64,000 nt of DNA from Deltaproteobacteria bacterium HGW-Deltaproteobacteria-22 (GTDB lineage Bacteria > Myxococcota_A > Polyangia > HGW-17). The number at the start of each line of letters is the position of its first letter. Positions within the stretch are counted from its first letter, which is position 1. The notes beneath the pieces were generated by a model. It searched no databases, was not told where the DNA came from, and saw only the letters and a list, made by a program, of their open reading frames with translations. Location of the stretch: positions 3,107 through 67,106 of the forward strand of contig PHAZ01000001.1 of NCBI GenBank assembly GCA_002841825.1. The letters run 5' to 3'. The position numbers and the translations under genes are program-made. Positions 13,724 through 64,000 of the stretch are shown one piece after another.

Positions 13724-13775
13724 GGATACTCCTCAGACGGAAAAAATCGTAAAATTGTAAACCTGCGGACGCTCC

Positions 13776-13909
13776 CTGTCGACAAAAAAACTGTGGTAGC
13801 AACTCCCAACATAGGCTGAAGTGAAAATTGTCTACAAAATCATCGTGTCACAAGGACCCTGTCGATAAAAGTAGCCTGAAGAATAGGCAAAATCGAACCC
13901 CTGTAGACA
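13776..13909. promoter_or_regulatory. Cluster of DnaA-box-like 9-mers in the divergent intergenic region upstream of dnaN
   Basis: TGTCGACAA (13776-13784), TTGTCTACA (13827-13835), TGTCGATAA (13859-13867, 8/9 to TGTGGATAA), TGTAGACAC (13901-13909). The pair CCCTGTCGAYAAAA occurs twice. AT-rich context. Confidence 0.35.
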
Positions 13910-14013
13910 CATGAGACCACGTGATCTTCTGTTTTGTCTTTCAAAGTTTAGGTAAAAGTCCGATTGATTTCCGAAAGGAAAAGGGATACTTTTTCCATCC
14001 GTGAGGGGTGCAA

Positions 14014-15126
14014 ATGAAAATCACGTTGAACAAATCCACTTTTCTGAACGGACTGTTCCTTGCCCAGAAAATTTCGGAAGGAAACGCCAGCATTCAGCCA
14101 ATCCTTTCAAACATTCAGATCACGGCCAATCCTGATGGAAAAATCTTCTGCAGGGCGACGGATATGAGCACATCCGTCACCAGCGAATTTCAGGCCGAAG
14201 TTTTTCAGCAAGGCACTGCTACTGTCAATGGCAAACTGCTGTATCAACTGGTGTCAAACCTTGCAGGCAAGGAAGTCACGCTTGAGAAGAAAGAAAATGC
14301 CATTTTTCTTACCAGTCACAAGAGTCGCTTCGAGCTCAACGGGCTACGCGATGAAGACTTCCCCAACTTCAATTTTTATGAGGATTCAGCCTATGTAGGT
14401 TTTGAATCAGAGATCCTTCGTGAATTGCTGGATCACACACTGTTCGCCGTAGCAACCGACGAGACAAAGCCGCACCTTGGCGGTATTTACCTTGTCACGG
14501 AAAAGAACATTGCCAAATCAGTGGCCACGGATGGACACAAGCTTGCCCTCGCAGAGTATCCGTTTGAAGGGAAATTCAACATTCCCAACGGCATCATCAT
14601 TCCGAGGAAGGGAGTCAACGACATCATGAAAATGCTGTCTGATGATTCCGCCAACGTAGGCCTTTTCTATGACAAGGAATTGAAAATTCTTGGGCTGAAA
14701 ACGGATAGCACCAAGATGAACATCAAGTTGATTGATTCCAAATTTCCTCCCTATGAACAGGTTATTCCACAGTACCAGGACAATAAATTGGTCATTCCGA
14801 AGGAGGAGTTTCTTGGTGCATTAAAGAGAATTAACTTGCTTTTTGAAGGAAGTGATGCTGGTGTAATATTAAAAATACAAAAGGACGGCATCGTTTTGAC
14901 GGGAATTGATACCCTGAAGGGCAAGGGAACTGAAGAAATAGAAGTTGATTATACAGGCGAGAAAATGCAAATTGCCTTTAATATCAAATTCTTTGACACC
15001 ATCGTCAACAAAATTCAAGGCAAAGAATTCAGCATTTTCCTTCATAATCCAAAGAGCCCTGCGCTGATCAAACCTATCGAAACCAGCAATTTCATTGCCG
15101 TTTTGATGCCCATCCGTCTCGACTGA
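14014..15126 (+). CDS. dnaN: DNA polymerase III beta sliding clamp DnaN
   Basis: MKITLNKSTFLNGL... three-domain beta-clamp-like sequence, about 370 aa. GAGGGG Shine-Dalgarno 5 nt upstream. Followed by recF. Confidence 0.85.
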   Translation: MKITLNKSTFLNGLFLAQKISEGNASIQPILSNIQITANPDGKIFCRATDMSTSVTSEFQAEVFQQGTATVNGKLLYQLVSNLAGKEVTLEKKENAIFLTSHKSRFELNGLRDEDFPNFNFYEDSAYVGFESEILRELLDHTLFAVATDETKPHLGGIYLVTEKNIAKSVATDGHKLALAEYPFEGKFNIPNGIIIPRKGVNDIMKMLSDDSANVGLFYDKELKILGLKTDSTKMNIKLIDSKFPPYEQVIPQYQDNKLVIPKEEFLGALKRINLLFEGSDAGVILKIQKDGIVLTGIDTLKGKGTEEIEVDYTGEKMQIAFNIKFFDTIVNKIQGKEFSIFLHNPKSPALIKPIETSNFIAVLMPIRLD

Positions 15127-47775: not shown

Positions 47776-48191
47776 GATTCGTCCCCAGCGATGGAGCGTC
47801 GCAGGATGGCCGCCCGCTCGGACTCGATGAGCAGCATCGATAGATTAAGAAATGCCCGAAAATCGAAGATCGCCAGCACGGTCGTTTTGGTAACGAAATT
47901 CGTTTCGTCACCAAAATGACCCTGAAGGCATAGCTTGAACGATTTCAATCGGGTGCCGCGCAGGACCTCGTAGCCGTTTTTGGTCAACTCCTCGCCGTAT
48001 CTATCCAGATAGTTGTCGATGGTCCGAGGGGTCACCTCGAAGAAAGCGGCGACTTGTTCCTTCAAGACCACGGTCTTTCCCTCGAAGGGAATTCCCTGGA
48101 TACCCGCGGCCTTCTCAATCTCCGAAAGCGCGTAGGGGTTGTTCAGGATGTTCTGGCGATCGATCTCCGAGGAGGTCAGGTCCTTTCCCAT
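47772..48191 (-). CDS. Small protein between mod and res, RhuM-family-like putative DNA-binding protein
   Basis: 140 aa after trimming the track ORF to MGKDL.... The VLKEQVAAFFEVTPRTIDNYLDRYGEEL segment resembles the N-terminal HTH-like region of RhuM-type proteins that commonly interrupt R-M loci. Start and stop overlap the mod and res genes. Confidence 0.4.
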   Translation of the reverse strand: MGKDLTSSEIDRQNILNNPYALSEIEKAAGIQGIPFEGKTVVLKEQVAAFFEVTPRTIDNYLDRYGEELTKNGYEVLRGTRLKSFKLCLQGHFGDETNFVTKTTVLAIFDFRAFLNLSMLLIESERAAILRRSIAGDES

Positions 48192-48193
48192 GG

Positions 48194-50113
48194 TTACAAA
48201 CTCCTCACGTTGGTGACGCCGTGCTGCAGCAGGATCGCCGACAAGTTGACCTTGGCGACATCGTCGACGAACGCACCATCGCGAAAGACGCAAGTCGGAT
48301 CTCCAGCGGTGCCCAACTCCCGTCGCCAGCCCACGATGCCCAGCGCCAGGGGTTCGATCTGCTCCCGGGAGATCTTTTCCGCCAGACAGGTCACCAGCGT
48401 ACCGCCGCCGATGGCGCTGACTTCCAGTCCGGCGATGGTTCTTTTCTGTAGGGGTACGCACAGGTCCAGACCCAGCTTGAGCAGGACTTCGTAGAGCAGA
48501 TCCTGCTCCGTGCGTCCGGGTTTGACGTGCTCGACGGCATCCAGCAGCGAGCGTTCCAGGTCGCGATGATCCGGGTCCCACTCCCGCAGGTTGGTGGCGT
48601 CGAGTTTGAACACGCGGAAACCAAGGTCAGGAGGCACCGGTTTCATCCCTTCGCTTTCCGAGAAGAGGTCACCCTGACGAGTACTCTCTGTCGCTTGCAG
48701 CTCTTCGGTAATCTTCTTTCCCGCTCGCCGCAGACGCTCCTTGGTGATATCGGAGATATTAACTATGGATTCCGAGATCCTTTCCTTTAGTGGCTCTTGC
48801 AGTTGAATAATAATGAATCTTTTATTTAGATTACTTGAAAGGTTCTGTGCCATTACTGCGTGGGCTGTCGTTCCAGATCCAGCAAAAAAATCAAGAACTA
48901 TCCCTTCTTCATCTGGGGAGAAGGCTAGTTGAATCATTCTACTAATAAGCAATGTAGGTTTTGGCGTGTCAAAAGATTCACTTTCGGGGAATAGTGCTCT
49001 CATCTGATTTTTCGAGGTTCGATTGCTCCCAACATCTTCTTTTCGCCAAAGCGTCCGAGGAGTGAGATCTCCGACTTCAGTAAGGTATCTTTTTATACTA
49101 GGTCGCGCGTCATTAGTTGGTCCCCACCAGATTCTGCCGTCAGAATCCAGTTCTTGAAGTTTTTCTTCTGAGATTCTCCAAAATCTTCCAGGTGGGGGTG
49201 AGAAAGTTCGCCCCGTTGGGCCTTTCACAGAATATTTTCCTTTGGAATAAGGCTTATTTGCGTAGGGATCACCGGGCAGCCATTCTCCACGAGGATCATT
49301 ATCTGGATTATTGTAAATGGAATTAGCCTCTTCTGTGCGAGGTAAGCGGGATGGTACCCATTCAGGTGATTTTGAATAAACAATTAGGAAATCATGGTCT
49401 TCGGAAAATTGACGTGCTGTATTTCTCGGTGAATCGGCTTTTTCCCAAATCACGGTAGCGACGAAATTCTCAGAACCAAAAATGTCATCCATAATCATCC
49501 GCAGGTTCGCCACTTCGTTGTCGTCGATGCTGACGAAGATCACGCCGTCGTCTCGCAACAGAGTGCGGGCCAGCTTCAGGCGCGGATACATCATGTTCAG
49601 CCAGTCCGTGTGGAAACGTCCGCTGGCTTCGGTGTTGGAGGAGATTTTCTTCCCACCCTCGACCTGTCCCGTCAACTCCAGGTAGTTGCGGATGCTGTCC
49701 TGGAAGTTGTCCGGATACACGAAGTCCTTGCCGGTGTTGTAGGGCGGATCGATGTAGATCAACTTCACGCGACCGGCGTAGCTCTTCTGCAGCAACTTGA
49801 GCACTTCGAGGTTGTCGCCCTCGATTAGCACGTTCTGGGTGGTGTCCCAGTCCACGCTGTCTTCAGGACAAGGCCGCAAGGTACCCGTGGAGGGTAAAAG
49901 CGCTGCCTGTCGTGCCTGCCGTTTGCCGAACCAGTTCAGTCCGAACTTCTCCTCCCGATCCTCGACGCGACCTCCCAGTAGTTGACGCAGCACCTCGAAG
50001 TCGACCTTCCCTTCGACGAAGGCCTCCGGAAACAAAGCGCGCAACTGCTCCAGGTTCTCTGTCACGAGCTCCAGGGAGTGCGTCATCGGGTCGGTGGGTT
50101 CGATTTTCTTCAT
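48194..50113 (-). CDS. mod: Type III restriction-modification DNA methyltransferase, Mod subunit (N6-adenine)
   Basis: DPPYN catalytic motif (LIYIDPPYNTGKDF). SAM motif FFAGSGTTAHAV. 639 aa. Confidence 0.85.
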   Translation of the reverse strand: MKKIEPTDPMTHSLELVTENLEQLRALFPEAFVEGKVDFEVLRQLLGGRVEDREEKFGLNWFGKRQARQAALLPSTGTLRPCPEDSVDWDTTQNVLIEGDNLEVLKLLQKSYAGRVKLIYIDPPYNTGKDFVYPDNFQDSIRNYLELTGQVEGGKKISSNTEASGRFHTDWLNMMYPRLKLARTLLRDDGVIFVSIDDNEVANLRMIMDDIFGSENFVATVIWEKADSPRNTARQFSEDHDFLIVYSKSPEWVPSRLPRTEEANSIYNNPDNDPRGEWLPGDPYANKPYSKGKYSVKGPTGRTFSPPPGRFWRISEEKLQELDSDGRIWWGPTNDARPSIKRYLTEVGDLTPRTLWRKEDVGSNRTSKNQMRALFPESESFDTPKPTLLISRMIQLAFSPDEEGIVLDFFAGSGTTAHAVMAQNLSSNLNKRFIIIQLQEPLKERISESIVNISDITKERLRRAGKKITEELQATESTRQGDLFSESEGMKPVPPDLGFRVFKLDATNLREWDPDHRDLERSLLDAVEHVKPGRTEQDLLYEVLLKLGLDLCVPLQKRTIAGLEVSAIGGGTLVTCLAEKISREQIEPLALGIVGWRRELGTAGDPTCVFRDGAFVDDVAKVNLSAILLQHGVTNVRSL

Positions 50114-50136
50114 CGTGTTGACTCCATGCTACGGGC

Positions 50137-50907
50137 TTACAAACGGCGCTTCCACATTTCCAGTTCCCGCTGCGCCTGCGCCAACTCGTCATTGAGCTGC
50201 ACCTGGCGGGCGATCTGCTTTTCCCGACGGGCAGCGGATCGAAGCCGGGTCATCATGCTACCGATTCGCGCCACCTCCCGCAATGCTTCTTCTCGTTCCC
50301 TGGCCCGCTCGGGAGTGGCGCAGATCGAGAAGTTCCCCAGGATGCGGGCAGTCTGCAGGGCCAGCAGAGCATCGATCCAGCTCTGATACAGTTGGTGCAT
50401 GTGCATGCGCCGCTGGTTTCCCAAGGCCAGACTGCCACGGAAATCCAGCAGGAAAGGCGCGTCGGGATCGGTGATGGAGCCCACGGTCACGACCTTGCCG
50501 TCAAGCACCGTTCGGGAAGGATCCTGGAGGGCACGTCGGATGTGCACCGCCGATAACTGGGTGCAGTCGGCCTGCTCGGTGAGCAGCAGCACCGGATAGG
50601 GAACGGACCGATGCACGCGTTCCACCATGCGTCCGATCCGTGCTTGCGGACGAAGCGACAGGTGCAGCACGGCGATCTCCTGGTAGTCTCGCGCAGATTC
50701 GCGATAAGCAGGAACGCCGATGGTGGTGGGCTTGAGCGTGGCCAGCCAGAACAGGGCGACAACACCTTCCGAGATAGCCTTGCGATCCGCCGGGGAAAAG
50801 ACTGCATTTTCCAACAGCAATTTCTTTGGAATGCGCAGGTTCAATCGACACGTGTCCGGAAGATCCAGCGCCGCTACGAGATCGTCGGAGTTGAAGATCT
50901 CCTTCAC
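50137..50907 (-). CDS. DUF4391-like protein (helicase/R-M-associated, function unknown)
   Basis: 256 aa. Position and size match DUF4391-family proteins found between SNF2 helicase and type III mod genes. Assigned from memory of that family and its context, not from a search. Confidence 0.5.
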   Translation of the reverse strand: MKEIFNSDDLVAALDLPDTCRLNLRIPKKLLLENAVFSPADRKAISEGVVALFWLATLKPTTIGVPAYRESARDYQEIAVLHLSLRPQARIGRMVERVHRSVPYPVLLLTEQADCTQLSAVHIRRALQDPSRTVLDGKVVTVGSITDPDAPFLLDFRGSLALGNQRRMHMHQLYQSWIDALLALQTARILGNFSICATPERAREREEALREVARIGSMMTRLRSAARREKQIARQVQLNDELAQAQRELEMWKRRL

Positions 50908-53900
50908 TGCGGTTTTCCTCGATCGTCTTCGTCGGAAAGCACTACCAAAAAGGCGAGCACCTCGAAGTCCTGGCTGCCGGAGAATTCCCCGGTGACTGCG
51001 TGCGTGCCCCCCGGTGAGAACAGACTGGCTGCGGCCTTCTCTTCGCTCTTTCCTGCGATGGAGGCAATGGCAGCAGAGAGCGCACGCTGGGCCTTGCGCA
51101 TGTCGAAGCCGTTCTTTGTTTCTCGATCAAAACGGTTGACCGCGCCCGCATCCACAAGGTCGCGGCCGATGCACAGCCGTTTGATGCGATCCAGGAGTTT
51201 CTTCGTCTGGGTGTAAGGCAACACTACGGTGCCATCATCGGTCACGTGCACGAGGAAGTGCGGTGCCAGCGGATACCCGTCGGAAGAGAACCGTGAGGCG
51301 GCAGGTCCCTCAGCGCGCAGGCAGAACAGGAAACCAGGTGGGATGTCGATCTCATGCGTCGTGGTGACGGCAAACGAACCGAAGGGGGCACTGTCGAGCG
51401 TTCCGGGATGGGCCTTCAGATGGCGCGCCAGATCGATGCGGAAATCCGTGAGCGTGAGATCGGCGATGGAAACGCCGGAGGAAAGATCCTCCAGGTCGAT
51501 GACGGCATCCTGAAGCTTGAGTAGCTGCTTGCGCCGGTATTCCAGATCGTTCATCTGGTTGCCGACCGCAGCCTGGATGAGGTTCTCCTCGCCCGTGGCG
51601 GAGATGTCCAGCAGCACCATGCGTCCGCCGACGCGCTGTTCCAGGTTGATGTACTCTTCGAGCTCCATGTTGGGCCAGAAGTTGATCAACTGGATACGGT
51701 CGTTGGGGCTGCCGATGCGGTCGATGCGGCCGAACCGCTGGATGATGCGCACGGGGTTCCAGTGGATGTCGTAATTGATGAGCGTGTCGCAGTCCTGCAG
51801 GTTCTGTCCTTCGGAAATGCAATCGGTGGCGATGAGCAGATCGAGCTCCCCTTCATCGGCTAGAGCTTCCGGCCGTTCCTTGGAACGCGGCGAGAAGGCC
51901 GTGAGAATGTTGGCCAGCTCACGGCGGAGTTTGGGCAGCGTCGTCTGGTTGGTGCCGGCACCGGTCACCAGGGCGCTTTCAATCTGATGCGTCTGTTTGG
52001 CCCAGGTGGCCAGATGTTCGTAGAGATAGCGGGCCGTATCCGCGAAGGCGGTGAAGACGATGACCTTCCGATTGCCGTGATTGACCGGATGCTTGAGCTT
52101 GTGCTCGATGACGCCTTTGAGGTTCGCCAGCTTCGCGTCTCGTGCAGCATCCACCTGATGCGCGGCCTGCACGAGCGTGGACAGGCGGTTGCGATCCTCG
52201 ATGAGATCCTGCCTCCAGCGGATAAGGTCCACATCGTGGAGGAGTACTTTAATCTTGCGACCCACGAGCTGGCTCTCGAACTCGGGATCCTCGATGTCCA
52301 TTTCCTCGATGTCGATGGCTTCCACCTCCTCGCTGGTGGGCTGCTGTTCGATGCGGTCGAGCATGGCTTCCACGTCGTCGAGTTGTCGCTGCATGGTGAG
52401 CTGGAAGGACGTGACGGAACTTTCCATCCGCTTGAGTGCGTTGATGCGGATCAATTGAATGAGACTGTCCTCACGGTCCTTCTGACGGAAAAAACCTTCG
52501 CCGCTGCTGAGCACGGTGCTGTACTTGCGATCGTAGGACTCCTGCCGGTGTGCCAGCACGTATCGCAGCGGTGCGTAGGCCGCCAGGTGCAGGTGTCGGA
52601 TCTCCGAGTTGATCGCGGCGATGGGAGGAAACACGCCGGCGTTGTCGACATCGGCCTTGATGTTGATCGGGGTCAAGCGATCCGGAAAACGGCCCGTCTC
52701 CTCGATGCCGTAGTACTTCTCGATGTGCTTGCGGGAGCGTGCAATTGTGAGCAGATCCAGCAGGGTGAAGTAGTCGAAGCCCAGCATGTCCACCAGGCGC
52801 AAGGGAGTCCGTTCTGCCTCGTCCAGTGTGAGCCAGCGATTGAACTGCTTCTGCGCGATGCGGGTGGTGGTGTCGATGCTGGCGATCCCATACTCCTCCA
52901 GGGCGGTGTCCTTGCCCTCAGTGGCGAACGCGATCTGGTTGCGCAAATCGGCCAGGCGGTTGTTCACGGGAGTGGCCGAGAGCATCAGCACGCGCGTCTT
53001 CACGCCTTCCTGGATAAGCTTGCGCATCAACTTGCCGTAGCGGGTTTCCCCGTCCATGTGCGGCGTGCGGCGATTGCGGAAGTTGTGCGACTCGTCGATG
53101 ACCACGAGGTCGTAGTTGCCCCAGTTGATGTGCGCGAGATTGATATCGCCGGAGATACCACCATCGCGCGAAAGGTCCGTGTGATTGAGCACGTCGTAAG
53201 AGAGACGATCTGCAGCGAGGATGTTGCGACAGTCGTTGGCCTTGTAAATCGTCCAGTTGTCACGCAGACGTTTGGGACACAGCACCAGCACCCGATCGTT
53301 GCGCAGCTCATGGTACTTGATGATGGCCAGCGCCTCGAAGGTCTTTCCCAGACCGACGCTGTCGGCGATGATGCAACCGCCGTGACGTTCGAGCTTGTCG
53401 ATGGCACCGATGACACCATCCCGCTGGAATTTGTAGAGCTTCTTCCAGACCATGGTGTTGCGGATGCCGGTGGCCGATTTGATGATGCGATCCTCGTCGA
53501 GATCGTCCTGCCTGTCAGAGAACAGATGGAACAGCATCAGCGCATACAGGGAGGTGGGATCGCGTGGGGTGGCGATATCCTGTAACGCCTGTAGCAGAGC
53601 CTGCGAATTAGTTCCGTCGGAACGTCGCGCATTCCACTGCGCCTCAAACCATTGGGCCACGGAGTCCGCTTCTTCGCTAGTCTGGGAAGCCTGGATCAAA
53701 TTCATGGGATTGCCCGGCGTCAAACCTAGGCCGTCGGTCGAAAACGACAAGGTTCCCGACAGTGCCAGAACCGGCTTTCCATCTGGGTTTGAAACGACCC
53801 AGGTGCCCTGCGGGATCGCTCCCTGCGCAAATCGAAACTCCACCTGCGAGGATGTCAACCAAGCCATACAATGGTTCGCCCAATGCCGCAACTGCAGCCG

Positions 53901-54125
53901 GTTTCGTGCCGGCCGATCCGCCTCGCTTCCCGTCAGCGCCAGTGCATCCATTTCCTCAGGCAACAGCAGGCGGCATTGCGCCAGGTCTGAAAGTCGCTTC
54001 ACCATTTCCGCAAAGGCCAGAAGCGACAACCGTGATGTCACGACATCCAACCGATTTCCGACTTCCAGCGCCGACGCCAGGTGATCCATGACGCGGTCGC
54101 TTCCGACATTGCGCACGATTCTCAT
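50904..54125 (-). CDS. SNF2-family helicase with about 220-aa N-terminal extra domain
   Basis: Motif [14 protein letters not shown]. Motif II [12 protein letters not shown]. Motif III [9 protein letters not shown]. C-terminal helicase domain [43 protein letters not shown]. 4-bp overlap with the DUF4391 gene. Confidence 0.85.
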   Translation of the reverse strand: [1073 protein letters not shown]

Positions 54126-54537
54126 GTTGGACTCCTTGGATGGTCGACCATTTCATTCGCAGCCACCTGCAGCGGCTCCTTCCGGAGTATGGCAGAGGGG
54201 AGAAAAAGTCAAGGATTGGTGGGTCTCATTGCAAGCACAACGAAGACACCACCCAGCAGGTGGACAGTCTGTGGTTCATGATCCCTGAATGGGAGTAAAA
54301 GTCCTTGGCTCTTGTTTCCGAAATTTTCAACTTGACCCTTCAATAAATTTTACTAGTATTGCTTTATAGCCATTTGTCCACTTGTACTTAGAATTTTTTA
54401 CTGTCAGCTAATATTGGTCATTGGTGTTAAATGGAGCTGGTTCATACAGAAACACGGAGTCAACTTTTTCCATATGATCGCGTTAGCATTGATCGTCCTT
54501 TACACGATGAGTTAAAAATTCTCACGGGAGTGTGTGC

Positions 54538-54810
54538 ATGCCTACTTTAATTAGCCCAAATACCCTACCGCGTGGCACGGTTGCCTATAACATGCTATCC
54601 AAATTCAAGGATCTACTTCAAGCAAAGCAAAGGCACCGTATCGTCGTTACGACACCTGACTACTATCAGATCGAAATTCTGTGGGGACTATTCAGTCTGG
54701 AGAAAGGTGAAAAGAGAGAGTTTCTCATTGAAGGTGGACCAGAGTTCTGCGCGGCAGTTCTCCAGTCGCTGCGGTCTGATGCTAAGATCCTGAAACTCTT
54801 GGAGCAGTAA
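54538..54810 (+). CDS. Hypothetical protein in an AT-rich segment
   Basis: ATG with GGGAG Shine-Dalgarno 7 nt upstream. 90 aa, no recognisable motif. Low-GC codon usage unlike the flanks. Confidence 0.4.
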   Translation: MPTLISPNTLPRGTVAYNMLSKFKDLLQAKQRHRIVVTTPDYYQIEILWGLFSLEKGEKREFLIEGGPEFCAAVLQSLRSDAKILKLLEQ

Positions 54811-54842
54811 CCGAGTTATGTATCGGGAAAAAGGAGTTGCTC

Positions 54843-54995
54843 ATGCGAAAATTCACCGTAATAGCGGTATTGATTTCCATTTTAGCGGCCATTTCGCTTA
54901 CTGCTTGCCCACCTGGTGGTGATGACGAGGCCACAAAGCGCGGCGGAGGGGGAAAGCAACAGCCCTACAATCCAAATGACGGACGCTATAAATAA
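54843..54995 (+). CDS. Small lipoprotein (50 aa)
   Basis: AAGGAG Shine-Dalgarno 7 nt upstream. MRKFTVIAVLISILAAISLTAC lipoprotein signal. Gly-rich mature peptide. Confidence 0.45.
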   Translation: MRKFTVIAVLISILAAISLTACPPGGDDEATKRGGGGKQQPYNPNDGRYK

Positions 54996-55006
54996 GGAGG
55001 TTGAAA

Positions 55007-55150
55007 ATGTGGACATTGGTTCTTGCAGATGAGTGGCTGTTTGGCTGGAGTAGGGGAATGTGGAAGGTCATGGCTATTATTATCATTGTTATCTTTATTC
55101 TCACTCGCGGAAAAATGACCTTTAAGGACGACGATAATGATGAAGAATAG
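55007..55150 (+). CDS. Small single-TM membrane peptide (47 aa)
   Basis: AAGGAGG Shine-Dalgarno. Hydrophobic core KVMAIIIIVIFIL. Acidic C-terminus DDDNDEE. Confidence 0.4.
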   Translation: MWTLVLADEWLFGWSRGMWKVMAIIIIVIFILTRGKMTFKDDDNDEE

Positions 55151-55181
55151 CTAATATAAACAACATATGGGAGCAGGAAAC

Positions 55182-55400
55182 ATGACAAAGAAATGTTTTT
55201 TTCCACTGTTGATATCCTTCATTTTTTTCGGGAATTCTTCTTGTAACAACTCGAATAAGGAGAAATGCAATAGTTATCAACAATGCTTAGATAATTGGGC
55301 ACGGGGAGATGGACCGCAAGTTTCCGCTAGCGAAATTTATGCATATTGCGCAAACCAAAGCGGAATCAGTGTCCCATCAAATCCTAATAAATGCGATTGA
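55182..55400 (+). CDS. Small secreted Cys-rich peptide (putative lipoprotein, five Cys in the mature part)
   Basis: GGAG Shine-Dalgarno. Signal MTKKCFFPLLISFIFFGNSSC. Mature roughly 50 aa with C-x4-C...C...C spacing. Confidence 0.45.
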   Translation: MTKKCFFPLLISFIFFGNSSCNNSNKEKCNSYQQCLDNWARGDGPQVSASEIYAYCANQSGISVPSNPNKCD

Positions 55401-55417
55401 TTCCTTATTCTTCTTGC

Positions 55418-55463
55418 CTATTCCGGAGCATCGTGGACACCTATTCCGGAGCATCGTGGACAG
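55418..55463. repeat. Tandem 23-bp direct repeat x2 (CTATTCCGGAGCATCGTGGACA[C/G])
   Basis: Two adjacent copies with one mismatch, immediately downstream of the small-peptide genes. Confidence 0.8.
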
Positions 55464-55533
55464 CATCCGTGAAATAGCATGATGCCTTTTTGTGAGGCCG
55501 CAACTGACCCTGGATTTGAATTTCATGACGCCT

Positions 55534-55559
55534 AAAAAAGTCTGGGTTTCCCCAGACTT
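55534..55559 (-). terminator. Rho-independent terminator for the minus-strand operon ending with the Cas4-like gene
   Basis: Minus-strand hairpin AAGTCTGGG-GAAA-CCCAGACTT followed by TTTTTT. Lies 30 nt downstream of the stop at 55589. Confidence 0.65.
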
Positions 55560-55588
55560 GAAGATCAAATATTCATTGTGTGGTGGGT

Positions 55589-56422
55589 TCAGTCCTGACT
55601 GGCGCACATGCTCCTGTAGCTGCAGCCGCCGCATCTCCAACTCCTGTGTTTAGGCAGGACGAGCTGGGGATGGTCGTGGGACAGGGCAAGGGAGATGATT
55701 GTGGAGGCGGATGCGGCCAGGGTCAGGGCGCCTCGCTCCTCTTTGGCGGGGTCATGGCGGGCGATGGTCTGGAGGGTGACTGCAGGAATTTTGGATTTTT
55801 GGAGGAACTGATACTGCAGGGAGACATCATCGACGTCGAAGATAGTCTTGGCCGCGAGTGAATACAAAGACATCTGAGTGTCCGGTGCGGCGACCTTGTC
55901 GTTGTCGATGCGCGCAGCCGTCTTGTGGTCGGTCACGACGATCTGTCCGTTGCGTTCTTCGACGAGATCGAAGGTACCGAGCAGGCACTCCGGGAGTTGC
56001 TCGCCCGAGAACGGGTTCACTAGCGGGAGAACAAACTTGAATTCAACGGCAAGGATGTGGGCAGGACGGTAGCCGGTGGCCAGGAAGGCCGTCAGCATCG
56101 CGCTGGCCTGCGACTTTAGCGAATCGATGGACTCGCCCTTCTTGAACGAGATGGGTGCTCTCTGCGGGGCATCGATGGCCGCCGAGGCCACGTCGACGAG
56201 TTCGGTGAGCGTCGGCTCCGTGCCGGACTGCTTCACGGAATTGTAGAAATAAGCGAGCGATTCGTGCACCGCGGACCCTAGGATGAGCGCGGCGCCGGTG
56301 TCTTGGGGCGGTTGCCCTTGGATGTAGTGGTAGAGGAATTCGCGGGGGCACTCAATGAGGGTGGAGATCGAGGAGGCCGAGAGGTGAAGTGCTTCATCTT
56401 GCGGAACGGGATTTGTAACCAT
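55589..56422 (-). CDS. PD-(D/E)xK nuclease-superfamily protein, Cas4/RecB-like, with C-terminal Cys cluster
   Basis: Motifs around QIVVTDHKTA (D..E.K core). Three C-terminal Cys (CGGCSYRSMC) plus an N-terminal Cys (IEC), the Cas4/AddB-type Fe-S arrangement. No cas1/cas2 or CRISPR nearby. Confidence 0.6.
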   Translation of the reverse strand: MVTNPVPQDEALHLSASSISTLIECPREFLYHYIQGQPPQDTGAALILGSAVHESLAYFYNSVKQSGTEPTLTELVDVASAAIDAPQRAPISFKKGESIDSLKSQASAMLTAFLATGYRPAHILAVEFKFVLPLVNPFSGEQLPECLLGTFDLVEERNGQIVVTDHKTAARIDNDKVAAPDTQMSLYSLAAKTIFDVDDVSLQYQFLQKSKIPAVTLQTIARHDPAKEERGALTLAASASTIISLALSHDHPQLVLPKHRSWRCGGCSYRSMCASQD

Positions 56423-56780
56423 GGGATTCTCCTCCGATCAGTTCGGAAATCAGCGTACTGGCTTCCTTGGTCGACAGATAGTTCAGCGCCTTGCTGAAGC
56501 GAGCCTTGCAGCTCGCGTCGAAGGCGTTCCAATTGCCGTCGAGTTTCTCGTTACACAGCTTACGCAGCATGGCGAGCTGGCGGCTGCTGATGCGACCTTT
56601 CTCATCGATAGCGGGGGCAGGCGTTTCGTTGGTGACGGGAAGCGGCGTGCTGTTGGTGGTCGCGGGAATGTGGCTGTTGGCGGGGTGAACGAGGATCAGC
56701 ACCTCGGCGATCTCTTTGCAGATCTCGTGGAGGTTCTGACCGATGTGGTCGAGATGGTTGCGAAGTTGTTCTTGTTCCAT
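56394..56780 (-). CDS. Hypothetical island protein, paralog B
   Basis: AAGGAG Shine-Dalgarno. C-terminal ISSRQLAMLRKLCNEKLDGNWNAFDASCKARFSKALNYLSTKEASTLISELI aligns with the protein at 39745..40209. Track ORF trimmed to MEQEQL. Confidence 0.55.
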   Translation of the reverse strand: MEQEQLRNHLDHIGQNLHEICKEIAEVLILVHPANSHIPATTNSTPLPVTNETPAPAIDEKGRISSRQLAMLRKLCNEKLDGNWNAFDASCKARFSKALNYLSTKEASTLISELIGGESHGYKSRSAR

Positions 56781-56943
56781 AACAAATCTCCTTGGATTGA
56801 AGCGGGTTATTTGCGCTTCTTGGGGTGGCGGTTGTTTTGCGACGGTTGCGGTTGCGGCGGAGAAGCCGGGATCCAAGCGACGACGATCTCGGCAACTTGC
56901 AAAATGAGGCAAATAACTTTCGGGTTCATGTGGTGATCTCCTT

Positions 56944-57930
56944 TCAGGCCGCTGCGAGTTGCATGGCCAGTTGCAGTGCGGTTTCTTTGACCTGCATGCC
57001 CTGTCCGAACCAGGCAGAATACATTCGGCTATCAGGGTTGTTGAGATTGCGTGAGTGGTCAACGAACTCCGAAACTGCATTCAGTGCGCGCCAGAAATTC
57101 GTCGCTGTGATATCGGTGCCGCGGCCGTTCTCGAAGAGTGCGGTAATTCGATCGCGGATTGAGCGAGCGCTGTTGCGCTTGGCGGTTTCGGCGGGATCGG
57201 GGAAGAGGCGGGTGAGGTACTCGCTCAACTGGAAGGTGTTGATGCTGCGCTGGGCCAGGTAACGGTACAGGTCGGCACTCTGCTCAAACTGGGCATTCAC
57301 GCCGGCCAGGTATTCAGCGACGTTCTGGATCCTGGCGACTGCACCGGCCGTGTGTCGGATGCTGATTCGCTTGTGCTTATCGGCGCGGGCTGTGGCCATG
57401 GCGAGGGTGTTCGAGCAGACCACGCGGATCGGCGTGAACATGATGCGGACGGGGCTGCTTCCGTCATGGGAATTTGAGAGCAGCAGATACTTGTCGACAA
57501 CGTCGTCTCCGGCAATGCGAAGGTTTCCATTGAGACGTGCGAGAACAAATACGGTTCGGCCGCCGCGAAGACTGCCGGCCGTGTGATACTCCACCATTCC
57601 CGTTTCGACGATCCGATTGAAAAACTCGAATGCAGCCTCATTCTGTACAGGGCGATATTGGTCGCCCACGACGCCGAGAGTTTGATAGGTGGGGGTGGTG
57701 TCGGCCTGCGTGATCTTGCGAACGACGGCGAAATGCCTCGGCACGCTCAGTGCATGCCACGTGTTGTTGTCCTGCACGATCGCTTCCAACGGCGTCTTGA
57801 AAACACTCCATCCGAGTCCTGCGGAAACAATCGCAGCAGCAGCGGTGGGCGGTGCGTCGGCAAGCAAAACGCCAAGGCCATGCCAGGCTGGCTTCTGAAC
57901 GAAGAATCCATTTTCAAACTGATGGCTCAT
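56944..57930 (-). CDS. DUF932-family protein (phage/plasmid-associated)
   Basis: 328 aa. Overall similarity to DUF932/TIGR03299-type proteins common on integrative elements (MSHQFENGFF...GVV.DQY.PVQN...SLRGGRTVF...). Assignment from memory. Confidence 0.5.
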   Translation of the reverse strand: MSHQFENGFFVQKPAWHGLGVLLADAPPTAAAAIVSAGLGWSVFKTPLEAIVQDNNTWHALSVPRHFAVVRKITQADTTPTYQTLGVVGDQYRPVQNEAAFEFFNRIVETGMVEYHTAGSLRGGRTVFVLARLNGNLRIAGDDVVDKYLLLSNSHDGSSPVRIMFTPIRVVCSNTLAMATARADKHKRISIRHTAGAVARIQNVAEYLAGVNAQFEQSADLYRYLAQRSINTFQLSEYLTRLFPDPAETAKRNSARSIRDRITALFENGRGTDITATNFWRALNAVSEFVDHSRNLNNPDSRMYSAWFGQGMQVKETALQLAMQLAAA

Positions 57931-58518
57931 GATTCAATCCTTTTCTGTTGATTTAATTATTGTTTTTGTCGGGGTGGGTTAATTGACAGGGTGGGAGAAA
58001 TGGCGGGTTTGAGGGTGGGTCCTTGTTGTTCATAGAAGTGCTCCTGGTATGGGTTTCAGGCGGTTTTTGCTTGGTGACGCGGATGCGGTTTTTGGGTGCG
58101 GATGCGGGTGTGTGTTTGCGGACGTTTGGGTGTTTCTAGGACGGGCGTTTGGAAGGGAAAAGTGGCAGGTAAATGCGGTGGTTTGCGGTGAGGTTGTGGT
58201 GAGGTGTTTTTCGCGGGGTCGGTTGCGGGTTTTCAGGCAGGCAGGAACGCAAAAGTGCGCTCCTTATGGTTCTTGTACCAGAAAAATGCGGATAATCAGG
58301 TTATGGATGCTCAATTCCCAGCGACAGACGAGAAAGTCAGATCGGGGAGCACGTTGCCCAGTTCATCGACGAGGCCAACACGCACAGGCGACCAAACTGA
58401 GCGACCAAGCTCAACAAGGCGCTCCCGAGGCCAGTGGCGGTGCAGGCGGTAGAGGACGTTGCCGTCGGGTGTCAAGGGCGATTGAGATGCGGTCGAGCGC
58501 AAACGGGGCACGCAACCC

Positions 58519-58770
58519 TTAGCGGCAGAGCTGCTCGAGTCCGGCGCGATCCTCGGGCGCCCCCGTGTGGAAGGCGTGAAGGGAGAAACCATCGACCTTG
58601 GATTCCTCTGCGTCTTCGTCGCGGTCCTCGGCAATGTGCTTGAGCTTGAGGCAGGCGCAATCGACACTGCTGTCACCGTCGTAGTCGAGGGCGTCGGCGC
58701 AGACGCGGCCGTCCCACCCAGTGTCGTGCCACGGGACGCGGATGGAGATGTGTTTCAACGGGTAGTTCAT
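58519..58770 (-). CDS. Small ORF translationally coupled (ATGA) to the RT-nitrilase gene; unrecognised N-terminal motif IRVPWHDTGWDGRVC; possibly frameshifted
   Basis: ATG overlaps the RT stop codon. 83-aa ORF. A second frame continues coding-like sequence to about 58311. Confidence 0.35.
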   Translation of the reverse strand: MNYPLKHISIRVPWHDTGWDGRVCADALDYDGDSSVDCACLKLKHIAEDRDEDAEESKVDGFSLHAFHTGAPEDRAGLEQLCR

Positions 58771-61700
58771 CCCAAACCTGCCGGAGGCGACTTCCAAGGC
58801 GACTCCGGCGCGAGTGCTTTGATCCTGCGCGCTATGACATGGTCGATGTTATTGATTTCGAAGAAGGCTACCGAAGCTTGCGGTTGTCCATGAAGGTGGA
58901 ACATCTGCCGTTGGTACTCCTTTCCCCAGGGATGGTACGCATTGCTGCCACCATACTCGCCGTTGTTTGCGATAACGACATACTGAAACATGTGGTAATG
59001 CAGCGCCAATGCCATTTGATCGAACGTGCCCACGTCCCTGTTCAGCGCTGGGATCGCGAATACATCAGAATGGTGACGAAGGTCTGCGGCCAACGCCAGA
59101 TCTGTCGCGTCGTAGCAGACGGCCGCGGTAAGCCACAGTGGCGGATCTGCTAACATGCTCGACCAGTCGTAGCCCACCAACCACTGACAAGGGCGCCAAC
59201 CTTGCACGACAACTTTCGGATTGTTCAACTTTGTCTCACCTGCGGCGAGGTGATGCTTTCCTTGCCGTCGAATGAGAGTCTGCAACCCGTGAGCTGCCGA
59301 CCAGGTCGGCATTATCCAAATGGCGGAATTGACCAGCGGCTGACCAGCGAACAATTCTTGGTAAGTCAGTCCCGCCAAGATGATGGCCCTGTGCTTGCGA
59401 GCAAACGGAATGAGGTGTGTCTTCACATCAAGTGGATGCACGGCAAGTTCCGGCAGAATTAGCCAATCGAGGCGACCATCGAGACCCATGTGCGTCTCAC
59501 GCAGATCGAGCATTCGCTCGATCGCTGCCAGAGCGGCAGACAAATGATTACGGTGCGTCTTGCGAATGCCCCGTTCGGACAAACTAAGATCGTCAACCGC
59601 TGCAGCGGTGATGATGTCGCTGGAGGTCGGCGTAACGGTCTGCACCACACAAGCCCGTAGTGGTCGCGTCTTCTTCTTCCCGTCAGGCCGCGAGGTATTG
59701 AACGGCAGAAGAAGAACACCGCTTGAACCACCTTGCATCCTATCGAGTTTCGATTGGCGCTCTTCAATAAGGGCGAGCAAGGCGAGAACGCCGCCTTCGG
59801 TCTGTCGGTCCATCTCTGAAATTTGACACCCTGGCCATCGAAGCAACGAGAAAAGCAACTGCTCAATCCAGTCCGAGATCGGCAGCCAGTCATCGCCAAA
59901 CGCCGAGTGCCCGTTGAAGAGACCGTAGAGCCTTTGATACCAATGGCTCTCCGCTGCTCGGTACGTTGTTGCGGTCTCCTTCCAACTGGGCGGGCGCACA
60001 ATCTTTGTGAAGTCTTGGCGCGCTGTCAGAATGAATCGAAGTAGATATCCAAGCTGAAATCGCCAACGCTTGTCAGCAGGGCACCATCGGGGCGGGCGGT
60101 ACATGGACCCGGCAGGTGTGACTCGGCTTGACGCGACGGAGACCGTGTCTTTTTCGGATAGTCCTTTCGCGGAATCCTGAACCCTAATGCGGACGTCTTC
60201 TGGGGTGATGACGTCATCCATTGCTGCCTCGGGCAATGCCTTCAGAAACTTTGAGGCGAAGCGAAGCACGGCGAGCTCGTTCCGTAGCGAACCGTTGGGC
60301 GTACCTTGAAGGACTATTTCGGCGAGCGACATCCCTGACTCGGCTCCAGCACGCAGCCGCAGGCAAAGATCATCACGCAAGCGCGGGGTGACGCTGGCAG
60401 CAAGGTCGGGCCGCGATTCAAGTATCTCCAATGCAAAGGACGGATCTCGCTCGCCGATCTGCTCGAGCCGGCTGGATGTGACACCATCGCGCACCAGCTC
60501 AATCGCTGTTTCTCGTCCGCAAAACGATCGACGCGCCAAGACGGCCAGCGTAGAAAAGTCCCCTCCCTTAATACGGTCGCCCTCGTTTCTGAGGAAGCGG
60601 ATCAACTCGCGGTAATGTTTCGTCTCCGGGTTGGTTCCTCCCCGTTGGACTGGTGCGTCCTTGGGGTCGTTTGCCGCGAGATACAAGAATGCCTGCTGCC
60701 TGAGATACCAAGGCAGCGCCGCTGGGGGTAACTCAGCAAGGCGCACCGCCTCCTGCCGCAGGAGCTTTCGATAGGCATCGATGTCGATACCTTTTGGCAT
60801 AGGCTCGCCTGTTTCAACGAAACCGGTCTCCGTGGCGCCAGCCCGCAACACTTCCGAGAGGCAGTACCACGCCACCCGTCGCGGTGCCCCTCGATGTCCT
60901 CCCTTAACGGTGAACGGTCGTAACAGGTCGAGCACACTTTGAAGAACAACCTCCGCCGGCCAAAGGTCCAACCCGATGCGAAGCAGGCGCACATTCGAGG
61001 GGTCTTCGACCCAACTTTCGATGAGGCCGAGGGCAAACGATCTGGCTTCATCATCAAGCTCGCTCTGAGTGCGAGCTACACCGGCGCGACTTGCTGCGTC
61101 CTCGTTCGCGTACACCTCGACTGACGTGTCCGGCTCTACGCGGTCCGCTAGGAGCGGTCTCAGGGAACGATAGGTGCTTCTGAACCGCGCTGCGGCGAAA
61201 CGCTCAACTGTGGCGTCGAGTACATCTGTGACGGGTGCGAATGCCCAACTTTGTCCGTCGATTCGCTGTGCCGAATAGCGCTGTTGGGACTGAATCAGCC
61301 CTTGGACAGCATTAAGGATGTCTTCGCCGCCAATTGCATCGAAGCCGCCGGAGATTGCGCCCTGAATGCGCGCCATCTTCCGGCTCTGCCGCACCAAAGG
61401 TCGCTCATCCCCTCCGAAGTTCGCGGCCCTGGTCTTCTCGGCAGAGACCTGCAAACCATGGGCTTGCTCATCAAGCAACTCCTGAAGCCATTTCGTTGAA
61501 AGCTGCTCGATGTCAGGGAGTGTCTTCTTTTCCGTGACCCCCAAGACAATGCGGAGATCATCGACGTACCGGCAAACATCCTTGACGACGACTCCAGGCT
61601 CGATCTCCTGAGACACGGTTTCCCGCAATCCTTGGTCAAAATCGAGCAACACGACGTTTGCAAAGAAACCGGATGCGACCAATCCTTGGGGAAGCGCGAC

Positions 61701-62537
61701 TCGTGAGAAATCGTCAATCCCCGCCTGCCTCGTGTAGTCTGCGATCTCTCGATCGTCCTTGCTGGCCCACTCCCAGTTCAACAAGCGATTCGCGAGTATG
61801 TAGAAGTTCGGATCATCGTTCGGTCGCGCCAGTGCGCTGAGCTTCCTAGCGAGTAGATCGGGCCGCACGCGGTCATAGAACTGGCGTAGGTCCGAGTGGA
61901 CGATGATGATTCGATTGCCTGCATCCCTTGAGACTTCCTCGGCGACAGTCTCGGGTCGCGCCAGAAAGCTTCGATAGTCTTGGTAGTGGGCGCGATAGAG
62001 TTTTCCTGAACCCCAGCGGTGAAGAAGCGAGCCACCAGCGTTGTCGCAAAACAAACGGTTGCCGTAGGAGATAACTTGATTGCGTACCACCGTATCTGTG
62101 ATTTGACCGCGAGGGTCACCCTGTAGCGTCTCGACCCTATCAGCGATGCACATCATCACGGCGGTGGCTGCCACTTGGTCGCTGAGGCTTGCGTGCGCCA
62201 ATGGACGCAGCGTGGTGCCCGGGCGTTTCGTATCCTGCGGGGTCCTTCGAACTGGGACTGGTTCCCAGCGCTTGGAGATCGAATTCACCTGCCAATGCTG
62301 ACTCTTGGGCGCCGGTACTATTCGCAGCGGATCGCTACACCACCTCTCAGGCGCCGCGAGACGTTCGGCCAGCTCGCCCAAAAAACGAGGGAGGTTAATC
62401 GCAGTCCGATCCAGTTCCAGCGTGTCAGAAAACCAATTGTGATACCGGATGTAAGAAGCCGTCTTCTTCCATGCTTGGACGAGGACAACCTCTTCGCGGA
62501 GTAGCTCAAGGTGCGGTCCAAGAACGTCGTTTGTCAT
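58767..62537 (-). CDS. Reverse transcriptase-nitrilase fusion protein (defence-associated RT, DRT type 1 / UG1-like)
   Basis: RT motif A IIIVHSDLRQFYDRV. Motif B-prime VALPQGLVASGFFANVVL. Motif C YVDD. Long helical middle region. C-terminal carbon-nitrogen hydrolase domain (LILPEL ... AAVCYDATD candidate E/C of the catalytic triad). 1256 aa. Confidence 0.75.
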   Translation of the reverse strand: MTNDVLGPHLELLREEVVLVQAWKKTASYIRYHNWFSDTLELDRTAINLPRFLGELAERLAAPERWCSDPLRIVPAPKSQHWQVNSISKRWEPVPVRRTPQDTKRPGTTLRPLAHASLSDQVAATAVMMCIADRVETLQGDPRGQITDTVVRNQVISYGNRLFCDNAGGSLLHRWGSGKLYRAHYQDYRSFLARPETVAEEVSRDAGNRIIIVHSDLRQFYDRVRPDLLARKLSALARPNDDPNFYILANRLLNWEWASKDDREIADYTRQAGIDDFSRVALPQGLVASGFFANVVLLDFDQGLRETVSQEIEPGVVVKDVCRYVDDLRIVLGVTEKKTLPDIEQLSTKWLQELLDEQAHGLQVSAEKTRAANFGGDERPLVRQSRKMARIQGAISGGFDAIGGEDILNAVQGLIQSQQRYSAQRIDGQSWAFAPVTDVLDATVERFAAARFRSTYRSLRPLLADRVEPDTSVEVYANEDAASRAGVARTQSELDDEARSFALGLIESWVEDPSNVRLLRIGLDLWPAEVVLQSVLDLLRPFTVKGGHRGAPRRVAWYCLSEVLRAGATETGFVETGEPMPKGIDIDAYRKLLRQEAVRLAELPPAALPWYLRQQAFLYLAANDPKDAPVQRGGTNPETKHYRELIRFLRNEGDRIKGGDFSTLAVLARRSFCGRETAIELVRDGVTSSRLEQIGERDPSFALEILESRPDLAASVTPRLRDDLCLRLRAGAESGMSLAEIVLQGTPNGSLRNELAVLRFASKFLKALPEAAMDDVITPEDVRIRVQDSAKGLSEKDTVSVASSRVTPAGSMYRPPRWCPADKRWRFQLGYLLRFILTARQDFTKIVRPPSWKETATTYRAAESHWYQRLYGLFNGHSAFGDDWLPISDWIEQLLFSLLRWPGCQISEMDRQTEGGVLALLALIEERQSKLDRMQGGSSGVLLLPFNTSRPDGKKKTRPLRACVVQTVTPTSSDIITAAAVDDLSLSERGIRKTHRNHLSAALAAIERMLDLRETHMGLDGRLDWLILPELAVHPLDVKTHLIPFARKHRAIILAGLTYQELFAGQPLVNSAIWIMPTWSAAHGLQTLIRRQGKHHLAAGETKLNNPKVVVQGWRPCQWLVGYDWSSMLADPPLWLTAAVCYDATDLALAADLRHHSDVFAIPALNRDVGTFDQMALALHYHMFQYVVIANNGEYGGSNAYHPWGKEYQRQMFHLHGQPQASVAFFEINNIDHVIARRIKALAPESPWKSPPAGLG

Positions 62538-62604
62538 GAGGACAGGCTACCGCTGCGGTTGGGGGACAACTGGCTGGGTGCCATGGAACCGACCGCCTGT
62601 GGCT

Positions 62605-62790
62605 TCATGACTCGCGACCCATTACCTCAACGAACTCCGCGACCACCTGCAGCTCCCCCTCATTCACGCCGGTGAGAATGATCGGCTTGAAGTTGGGGTT
62701 CACCGGCTTCAGCGTGTTCTTCTCGTCCTTCGAGAGCGTGCGCCCCTTGCGGTCCTTGAGCCACTTCTCGCAGAGAGCATAAGCACTCAT
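62605..62790 (-). CDS. Small hypothetical ORF near the right end of the element
   Basis: 61-aa ORF only, no motif recognised. Could be a gene remnant. Confidence 0.2.
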   Translation of the reverse strand: MSAYALCEKWLKDRKGRTLSKDEKNTLKPVNPNFKPIILTGVNEGELQVVAEFVEVMGRES

Positions 62791-63025
62791 AGACGTTTTG
62801 GCCTCCCACGGGTACTATCCCCGAGGGTGCAGCGGAAGTCAAGGTTGAGCATTTTGGGTAAAAAAGGGGTTTACGAGGAGATTTGGCGCCATCGCTTTAC
62901 GTGTTGTTCGCCCATGATTTTCCGCCTCCTCCGCAACTGACCCGCGCGCACCTCCCCGACCGCCGGGGAGCGAAACGTTCACCTGTGACCCGACCCACCT
63001 TCACGTTCCACCCACGTCAGGAAAC

Positions 63026-63044
63026 ATTTCCTTAACTTGGGCGA
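63026..63044. repeat. Right direct repeat (attR candidate), CATTTCCTTAACTTGGGCG
   Basis: Exact copy of 38429-38447. Followed by a second AACTTGGGC half-repeat. Confidence 0.7.
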
Positions 63045-63333
63045 AACTTGGGCCAAAATGAGCCTTTCCTTACACGAATGAGAAAAAATGAGGCTGACAA
63101 CAAGAACTGAGAAAACCCACACGGGACAAGGAAATACGCGAAATTCTCAGGCCGTACGCGGGGTTTTGAAATGGCACATGGATTACCGCGGCCAGTAGAC
63201 CCCCCTCCCATTTTGGGACAGCGGATGCTCCATCAAGTCAAATTCGCCGTTCCATTCGTTGACGGTCCACCACCTGGCTGCTATCGTTTCCGTGATGCGG
63301 CAAGCACGAATCTACATATTGTTAATCAACGCG

Positions 63334-64000
63334 ATGGTTGCATGGATGGCCCTGGGAACGGCCTGTGGGCAGACGACGTCCTCAGGGACCGGCCCTATGA
63401 CCAATATCCCGGGTGGGCCGTGGCTCAAAATTCACACACCAACGCCCGATGACCTGCTTGATGTGTGGGAAGATGGCCATGGTATCGTATGGGCCGTCGG
63501 GCGCTTTGGCACCGTGTTGCGATGTGATGGTGCACGGGTTGAGAGGGTCGATCTGGGCCACCACGGTGTGGATTTTCAGGCCATTCACGGCTCGTCACCG
63601 GAGGATATCTGGATCGTCGGCGACGAAGGCGTTGTCCTGCATTTCAATGGTGCTGACTGGGTGGAACGTCCGATCACCTCGCACGTCAGGTGGCTGATGG
63701 ACGTATGGGTGACCCCGGGCGGGAATGTCTGGGCCGTGGGCTCTGCCTACGAATACGTGGACGATGGTAGCGGGTTCTACCCGGTGGCTCATCTGTGGGA
63801 CGGCGCCCAGTGGAACTACACGCCGCTGCCTGAATCCGTCAGAGACACAGACCGACGGACCAAGTGCACCCAGCTTGAAGCCGTTCATGGCACCGACGGC
63901 GATCTCTATGCGGTGGGAACGGCCGGGGGGCTGTTTCACCATGACGGTTCGGAGTGGAGCTCTTTGGACTCGGGGGTCGACTACTACCTTTTCGATGTCT
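63334..64000 (+). CDS. Beta-propeller repeat protein (Ycf48/BNR-like), N-terminal part; continues beyond the window
   Basis: ATG at 63334 preceded by an in-frame stop. Open to the window end. Repeated V/I-W-A-V-G...G...DG units (VWAVGRFGTVLRCDG, IWIVGDEGVVLHFNG, VWAVGSAYEYVDDGSG, LYAVGTAGGLFHHDG). N-terminal signal-like MVAWMALGTAC. Confidence 0.45.
   Translation, partial: MVAWMALGTACGQTTSSGTGPMTNIPGGPWLKIHTPTPDDLLDVWEDGHGIVWAVGRFGTVLRCDGARVERVDLGHHGVDFQAIHGSSPEDIWIVGDEGVVLHFNGADWVERPITSHVRWLMDVWVTPGGNVWAVGSAYEYVDDGSGFYPVAHLWDGAQWNYTPLPESVRDTDRRTKCTQLEAVHGTDGDLYAVGTAGGLFHHDGSEWSSLDSGVDYYLFDV

Follow-up and report, generated by a model that had tools for sequence, protein, structure and literature searches.

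The Drt1a gene and its surroundings

The window, by which we mean the whole 64,000-nt stretch of DNA analysed, contains on its minus strand, at 58767..62537, an intact gene for Drt1a, a UG1 reverse transcriptase (RT) fused to a C-N hydrolase/nitrilase. The 1256-aa product matches the PADLOC Drt1a profile across residues 4-1255 (E=0, 1272.7 bits), also matches RTasNitrilase (1.2e-60) and Pfam RVT_1, and aligns end-to-end with the Drt1a of a related locus, L089, at 59% identity. A YVDD motif and the nitrilase ELAV/CYDATD motifs are readable in the translation. The attributes of Drt1a in DRT type 1, a length of ~1200-1300 aa and an RT with a C-terminal C-N hydrolase, are those of the gene at 58767-62537 and not of the small ORF that follows it.

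The Drt1a stop codon (TGA, 58769-58767) overlaps, as ATGA on the minus strand, an ATG at 58770-58768 that opens an 83-aa ORF (58770..58519, minus strand). This ORF begins MNYPLKHISIRVPWHDTGWDGRVC, ends with a TAA at 58521-58519 and corresponds to a GenBank entry, hypothetical protein CVU65_00215, from a Deltaproteobacteria metagenome-assembled genome recovered from groundwater. A second ORF, in the +1 frame of the same strand (58676..58311, 121 codons), contains ...LTPDGNVLYRLHRHWPRERLVELGRSVWSPVRVGLVDELGN... and terminates with a TGA at 58313-58311. A preliminary description of this DNA had reported both features: the coordinates confirm that the RT stop overlaps an ORF ending at 58519, an overlap that recurs in related loci, and the frame continuing to about 58311 is real as an open frame. 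A scan of 57800-58900 for promoters and terminators identified none above shuffled expectation, and there was no Rfam match at E<=1 across 57000-64000.

DRT1 is stated to work alone (PMC13275509, PMC9226505), and a transmembrane partner, Drt1b, is found beside about 18% of drt1 genes (PMC13275509; 33/175 in PMC9226505), so that the preliminary account of published DRT1 systems as single-gene holds roughly, the drt1b-associated loci excepted. As in most DRT1 loci, the window has a full-length Drt1a and no Drt1b: neither downstream ORF has a PADLOC match to Drt1b and both translations, read directly, are charged and have no long hydrophobic stretch. The DRT1 of the window is effectively a single-gene system, and its Drt1a would be expected to work alone, by analogy with the characterised DRT1 expressed in E. 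coli (PMC13275509).

The surroundings are a defence-rich mobile region with SNF2/DUF4391/methylase/Res, PD-(D/E)XK, DUF932 and DUF5906 genes. A minus-strand operon at 44806-54125 encodes an SNF2 helicase (1073 aa), a DUF4391 protein, an N6_N4 methylase and a 989-aa ResIII + RE_endonuc protein; this is apparently a second restriction-like defence system in the same island, and seemingly an intact one. At 54000-55600, between the SNF2 operon and the PD-(D/E)XK gene, the GC content is 0.39-0.49 versus 0.58 for the window, and only short AT-rich ORFs are present. The region 57800-58400 is the non-coding leader of the DUF932 gene, with a plus-strand GC skew of +0.36 and repeated C/A-rich, CCGCA-like motifs on the minus strand.

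A PDC-S68 sequence at the start of the small ORF

Residues 1-58 of the 83-aa ORF match positions 1-51 of the 1221 in the PADLOC PDC-S68 profile (E=7.6e-14). The N-terminal motif that the preliminary description could not assign to any family is, then, the N-terminus of PDC-S68. Pfam and NCBIfam gave no match for this ORF or for the second-frame ORF. PDC-S68 is one of 145 phage defence candidates predicted from their embedding in BREX, DISARM and Type I restriction-modification (RM) systems (Payne et al., bioRxiv 10.1101/2024.01.29.577857); the defence function is a prediction, and the main text of that preprint does not use the names S68 or PDC-S. Based on PADLOC, blastn and GC by codon position, the matching region (58600..58770, minus strand) is very probably a 57-codon 5′ remnant of a gene for a PDC-S68-family, RecD2-like helicase. 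The 57 codons are coding-like in composition (GC3 0.84, GC2 0.39), and tblastn with an intact family member from locus L009 covers, in the window, residues 1-50 of 1255 only. The window copy differs from PDC-S68 in that it retains ~4% of the gene, far from a full-length match to the profile, and in having neither the helicase core nor all of the invariant residues.

The 59 relatives from a word-indexed search are short without exception (55-146 aa), with conservation limited to the first ~57 residues. Eleven residues (S9, R11, V12, P13, W14, H15, W19, D20, G21, V23 and C24) are invariant across these 59, which bears out the earlier impression of a conserved motif. An exhaustive HMMER search of 1.84 billion representatives gave 332 matches at E <= 0.001, including full-length proteins of 1239-1276 aa; nearly all end at query residues 50-66 and none extends beyond about residue 74. 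The motif of the family is H-x-S-x-R-x-P-W-H-D-x-G-W-x-G-x-V-C-x2-P-x2-N-x2-C-L-x-L. In the window, its first half (to C24) and the C-L-K-L are intact and, between them, the P and N have been exchanged for a longer, unrelated segment. DNA and protein alignments place this replaced segment at 58660..58695 (minus strand) and make it 21 nt longer than the corresponding sequence of the relatives; ADALDYDGDSSVD occupies the place of A-PRLNG. The P, N and C of C-x2-P-x2-N-x2-C are invariant or nearly so in the family, and the P and N are invariant even among relatives that are 40-50% identical. Outside the replaced segment the stub, with only 50 comparable codons, is about 90% identical to L009. As the start codon, the ATGA coupling, the coding-like GC3 and this identity to L009 have all been kept, the decay is recent or the stub is constrained.

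The intact gene and the PDC-S68 family

We fetched 83 loci that encode relatives of the C-terminus of Drt1a. Among those whose downstream flank is long enough for a judgement, L009 is the closest, its Drt1a C-terminus being 84% identical to that of the window. At this locus the GGTTTGGGATGA junction is the same, and behind it stands an intact gene for a 1255-aa protein at 11200-14967; an uninterrupted ORF behind another RT-nitrilase gene, as envisaged in the preliminary description, does therefore exist, at the same ATGA junction. The 1255-aa protein matches PDC-S68 end-to-end (E=0), as do the intact homologues that adjoin Drt1a elsewhere, and contains AAA_30, AAA_19 and UvrD_C_2 domains at about residues 615-1085. 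A RecD2-like SF1B core (AAA_30 / UvrD_C_2, with Walker A GPAGTGKT) is present in L009, L046, L035 and L045. The core of the parent family matches NCBIfam TIGR01448 at 3e-58, which is below the curated cut-off, and PDB 3e1s at 1.1e-20, and Foldseek aligned an AlphaFold model (pLDDT 80.7) with the RecD2 structure 3gpl at E=2.4e-23. The parent architecture consists of a conserved N-terminal region of ~600 aa, the RecD2-like SF1B core and a small C-terminal domain that resembles PDC-S69. The core is thus like that of the RecD2/RecD/Dda SF1B 5′-3′ DNA helicases, and the C-terminal domain and the ~600-aa N-terminal region set the family apart from them. A Foldseek search with the N-terminal region against the PDB and BFVD returned nothing significant (best 2p5d, E=0.5, probability 0.21).

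AlphaFold models were inspected for one near-complete protein (P0281, 1186 aa, pLDDT 80.7) and for the N-terminal 489 aa alone of another (P0173, pLDDT 85.0). In both, HISIRVPW forms the first beta-strand of an alpha/beta region, with strands to about residue 240 and a helical region thereafter. To a much larger domain, the first ~57 residues contribute a single strand and a few short helices, and from these models, inspected for features other than strand pairing, it seems unlikely that the segment present in the window would fold alone.

There are more than 2200 matches to PDC-S68 at E<=1e-20. Proteins of the family (P0195-P0313) are 79-93% identical across Beta-/Gammaproteobacteria, Acidobacteriota, Binatia, Dadabacteria, Fimbriimonadaceae and others, and this degree of identity across phyla would imply a recent and wide horizontal spread or a very strong constraint. 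Seven full-length S68 genes were located on long contigs: one lies 13 nt behind Drt1a (L089), two lie 14-25 nt behind a gene for a Type ISP-like enzyme, two lie 23-24 nt behind HsdR-S24 and the remaining two are elsewhere in RM islands. The contexts behind HsdR and Type ISP genes agree with the way in which the PDCs were defined. The S68 helicase also occurs on its own. In several loci the HsdR or Type ISP-like enzyme itself has a C-terminal, LexA-like Peptidase_S24 domain (L092 2387-5977, L094 2431-5976, L093 2091-5975, L003 6299-7975), an unusual fusion with a conserved junction, the S68 gene starting 14-25 nt downstream of the S24-encoding end.

The breakpoint and the sequence beyond it

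A single blastn alignment of window positions 59198-58601 with L009 10772-11348 (83% identity) crosses the gene junction and ends at 58601, and the alignment of the window with L046 covers 58770-58600 and then ends. In a multiple alignment, the window tracks L009, L046 and L027 as far as ...GACGCAGAGGAATCC, beyond which there is no relationship. The breakpoint would accordingly fall at 58600/58599, a position read from a single metagenome-assembled contig. The remaining ~3.6 kb of the helicase gene is missing from the window; no other part of the 1255-aa protein, and nothing of the helicase core with its AAA_30 / UvrD_C_2 domains and Walker A GPAGTGKT, was found in any frame of 56000-59200.

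Beyond the breakpoint, the 83-aa ORF reads through into a non-homologous tail of 26 codons and the TAA (58519..58599, minus strand), delimited by the limits of the HMMER matches and by the divergence from L009, L046 and L027. The tail reads KVDGFSLHAFHTGAPEDRAGLEQLCR; it has no homologue in any search, and in none of the 332 HMMER matches does homology reach it. The +1 frame over the same DNA and onward (58311..58598, minus strand) is judged to be non-coding filler. Its translation (58314-58598) has no protein homologue at E<=10 in a word-indexed search of about 5.8 billion sequences and no Pfam or PADLOC match, blastn of 57931-58620 against the PLSDB plasmids gave no match, and blastn and tblastx of 57931-58650 against 97 fetched loci detected the S68 head only, with all else at <=34 bits. 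The GC2 of this frame is 0.60, versus 0.40-0.45 in the real genes of the window, and its codon score of -0.105 bits/codon is near the 5th percentile (-0.135) of in-frame windows, on a measure that discriminates weakly in this window. Divergence from the relatives starts ~80 nt ahead of the stop codon of the 83-aa ORF and not at a frameshift point. Given the missing homologues, the GC2, the low codon score and this early divergence, we take the second frame to be open by accident, within GC-rich (58%-GC) non-coding DNA. The preliminary description had called the second frame protein-like: homology searches identified the family of the first segment and nothing for the second, and a coding-like composition is likewise confined to the first 57 codons. 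An internal deletion in S68 that left its C-terminus as the second frame was also considered and ruled out, as this frame matches no part of S68.

Remnants upstream of Drt1a

A 61-aa ORF upstream of Drt1a, at 62605..62790 (minus strand), consists of two fused remnants of a gene for a Type ISP-like RM enzyme with a terminal Peptidase_S24 domain, as established by blastn, tblastn and DNA alignment. One, at 62723-62774 (minus strand), is a 52-nt piece of the Type_ISP_C region with 98% identity to L009 6671-6722 in blastn. The other, at 62617-62730 (minus strand), encodes the final 38 residues of the S24 domain, and was detected when the S24 tails of L092, L093 and L094 were used as tblastn queries (66-68% identity across 38 aa). 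A spacer between this S24 tail and the Drt1a start (62538..62604, minus strand) is conserved with L009 and L010 in DNA alignment and blastn, and blastn of the upstream flank aligned 189 nt at 78% with L009 7244-7432. A Type ISP-like enzyme of 1150-1290 aa with an S24 end is encoded directly 5′ of Drt1a in L009, L046, L027, L016, L010 and L052. In L035 the order is Type ISP-like gene, S68, Drt1a, and there is no S24-tail match at that locus. On either side of Drt1a, the window thus has stubs of the genes that usually adjoin it, and the region is a decayed three-gene array of which Drt1a is the sole survivor. No direct or inverted repeats of >=10 nt flank the Drt1a cassette, and there is no IS at the breakpoints.

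Origin of the small ORF

The small ORF behind Drt1a is, very probably, a pseudogene remnant, the surviving 5′ end of a PDC-S68 helicase gene that has otherwise been deleted. The ancestral same-strand array would have had the order Type ISP-like RM enzyme with a C-terminal Peptidase_S24, Drt1a and a PDC-S68 protein of ~1250 aa, with the start codon of the helicase gene overlapping the Drt1a stop as ATGA. Deletions or rearrangements would then have left 57 helicase codons (to the breakpoint at 58600/58599) and two short pieces of the upstream gene, and spared Drt1a. Its overlap with the Drt1a stop probably explains the survival of the stub, since a deletion extending further upstream would damage a selected gene. 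Ribosomes that leave Drt1a probably still re-initiate at the stub and synthesize an 83-residue peptide, 57 residues of a degraded motif followed by 26 unrelated residues. Lacking the helicase, the C-terminal domain and the remainder of its own domain, this peptide is presumably non-functional. The preliminary description had suggested a coupled partner that was intact, frameshifted or recently inactivated; recent inactivation is the option that stands.

It is quite improbable that the truncation is an assembly artefact, in which mis-assembly at 58600 and near 62730-62775 would have made the contig chimeric and the genome itself would have intact neighbours. In favour of an artefact, the sequence is from a metagenome-assembled genome, the exact protein was seen on one contig only, and S68, with its 79-93% identity across phyla, behaves as an inter-genome repeat able to break assemblies. 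Against it, three or more mis-joins would have to lie symmetrically about a single gene, and neither the 21-nt-longer segment nor the internal deletion in the upstream remnant is what an assembly error looks like; independent assemblies, moreover, contain equivalent remnants, in one case on 5 contigs. A second alternative takes the 83-aa ORF for a functional small accessory protein of DRT1, translationally coupled and with the WHD/GW/VC motif as an autonomous module. The start codon and the ATGA coupling are intact, the first 57 codons are coding-like and many short database proteins (55-146 aa) carry the motif, but every short relative examined in context proved to be a fragment or remnant of a long gene, the tail has no homology, the invariant P and N are lost, breakpoints vary from locus to locus and so provide no conserved short form, and the AlphaFold models place the segment within a much larger domain; we regard this as highly improbable, and the new accessory component of DRT1 that was suggested earlier is, rather, very probably a remnant of a PDC-S68 gene. 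That the two frames encode one protein, interrupted near 58519-58540 by a sequencing indel or by a frameshift, whether true or programmed, is hardly credible: the +1 frame is open for 121 codons and overlaps the end of the first ORF, but it has neither a homologue nor a match to the 1255-aa partner, there is no slippery heptamer at 58519-58560 by inspection, the joined frames would give only ~150 aa versus ~1250 in the family, and a deletion or rearrangement has cut the gene at 58600, ~80 nt ahead of the stop.

The short relatives examined in context are consistent with a remnant of a longer gene. P0014 and P0002 are the first pieces of helicase genes of ~1250 aa that have been frameshifted, in assemblies in which the neighbouring genes are also split, and P0006, P0015 and P0021 are stubs with unrelated genes behind them. 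The 83-aa ORF is better annotated as a pseudogene fragment than as a hypothetical protein or a DRT1 accessory factor.

Linkage of Drt1a and S68 in related loci

An S68 gene or stub is present immediately downstream of Drt1a in 11 of the 78 Drt1a loci with >=300 nt of downstream flank, and we put the linkage at ~13% of the sampled loci; in L035, S68 lies directly upstream instead. Most loci have gaps of -4 to +22 nt. Four-nt start/stop overlaps are found in the window, L009, L045, L016 and L010, a recurrence that argues against chance as the source of the ATGA overlap, and gaps of 13-22 nt in L027, L085, L087 and L089. Three S68 subtypes take part in the linkage, as do Drt1a proteins with 44-84% identity. 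Across nine loci, the pairwise identities of Drt1a and S68 correlate (Spearman 0.76), with pairs that are not independent and with partner swaps visible, for example in L016. The DRT1 literature (PMC13275509, PMC9226505) gives no helicase partner for UG1 and does not describe the Drt1a-S68 link. The coupled neighbour in the window, a stub of a soluble helicase, differs from the transmembrane Drt1b.

Some DRT1 systems might use Drt1a and the PDC-S68 helicase together as one functional module, in many cases behind a Type ISP-S24 enzyme, and the window would then be a decayed example; we consider this unlikely. DRT1 expressed in E. coli is reported to require a phage SF1B helicase, Dda, for activation (PMC13275509), and on that analogy it may be speculated that a host-encoded SF1B helicase could process or sense DRT1 DNA adducts. 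As S68 is equally tightly linked to restriction genes, independent systems that are co-transcribed are a more economical reading than a Drt1a-S68 partnership. A partner specific to DRT1, as the preliminary description implied, does not fit the presence of the same helicase behind Type I HsdR and Type ISP genes, and also alone. The recurrent Drt1a-S68 operon in relatives is nevertheless a moderate lead, the feature in the window itself mattering little, and gives the catalogued PDC-S68 defence candidate a repeated, tight operonic linkage with Drt1a, and equally with S24-ended restriction enzymes. At L007 (3693-7448) and in L038, a different gene, for a 1251-aa Type IIG-like methyltransferase, overlaps the Drt1a start by ATGA, and Drt1a is thus coupled to various large restriction genes upstream. 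This 1251-aa gene of L007 was considered as an S68 helicase and rejected.

The same decay at other loci

Stubs of S68 remain behind Drt1a or restriction genes at several other loci, and this type of decay is not unusual. There are 33 S68 codons at L041 and 122 codons, with a frameshift, at L010; at L003, a 64-codon stub lies behind an HsdR-S24 gene. In L096 (6712-7201) and L097 (1592-2081), an 84-aa S24 tail and a 67-aa S68 head are present with nothing else between or around them. The S24-tail/S68-head junction may be a hotspot for defence-gene exchange, and this scar, found in many genomes, could serve as a marker for sites of defence-gene swapping. Presumably, deletions spread freely downstream but are held back upstream, where the stop codon of a gene under selection overlaps or abuts the start of S68. 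In L004/L005, a 53-codon S68 head (8001-8153) is followed by a QatABCD operon; the motif was considered as an N-terminal module of the KAP NTPase (QatA) at these loci and this was rejected, as it is merely a 53-aa S68 stub ahead of the Qat operon. At L006, where the Drt1a C-terminus is 93% identical to that of the window, 13 S68 codons are left. An N-terminal DUF262-like fragment (YAIDSYQREYGW; 3103-3570, minus strand), a defence-gene remnant, lies right after this 13-codon stub, at the locus closest to the window.
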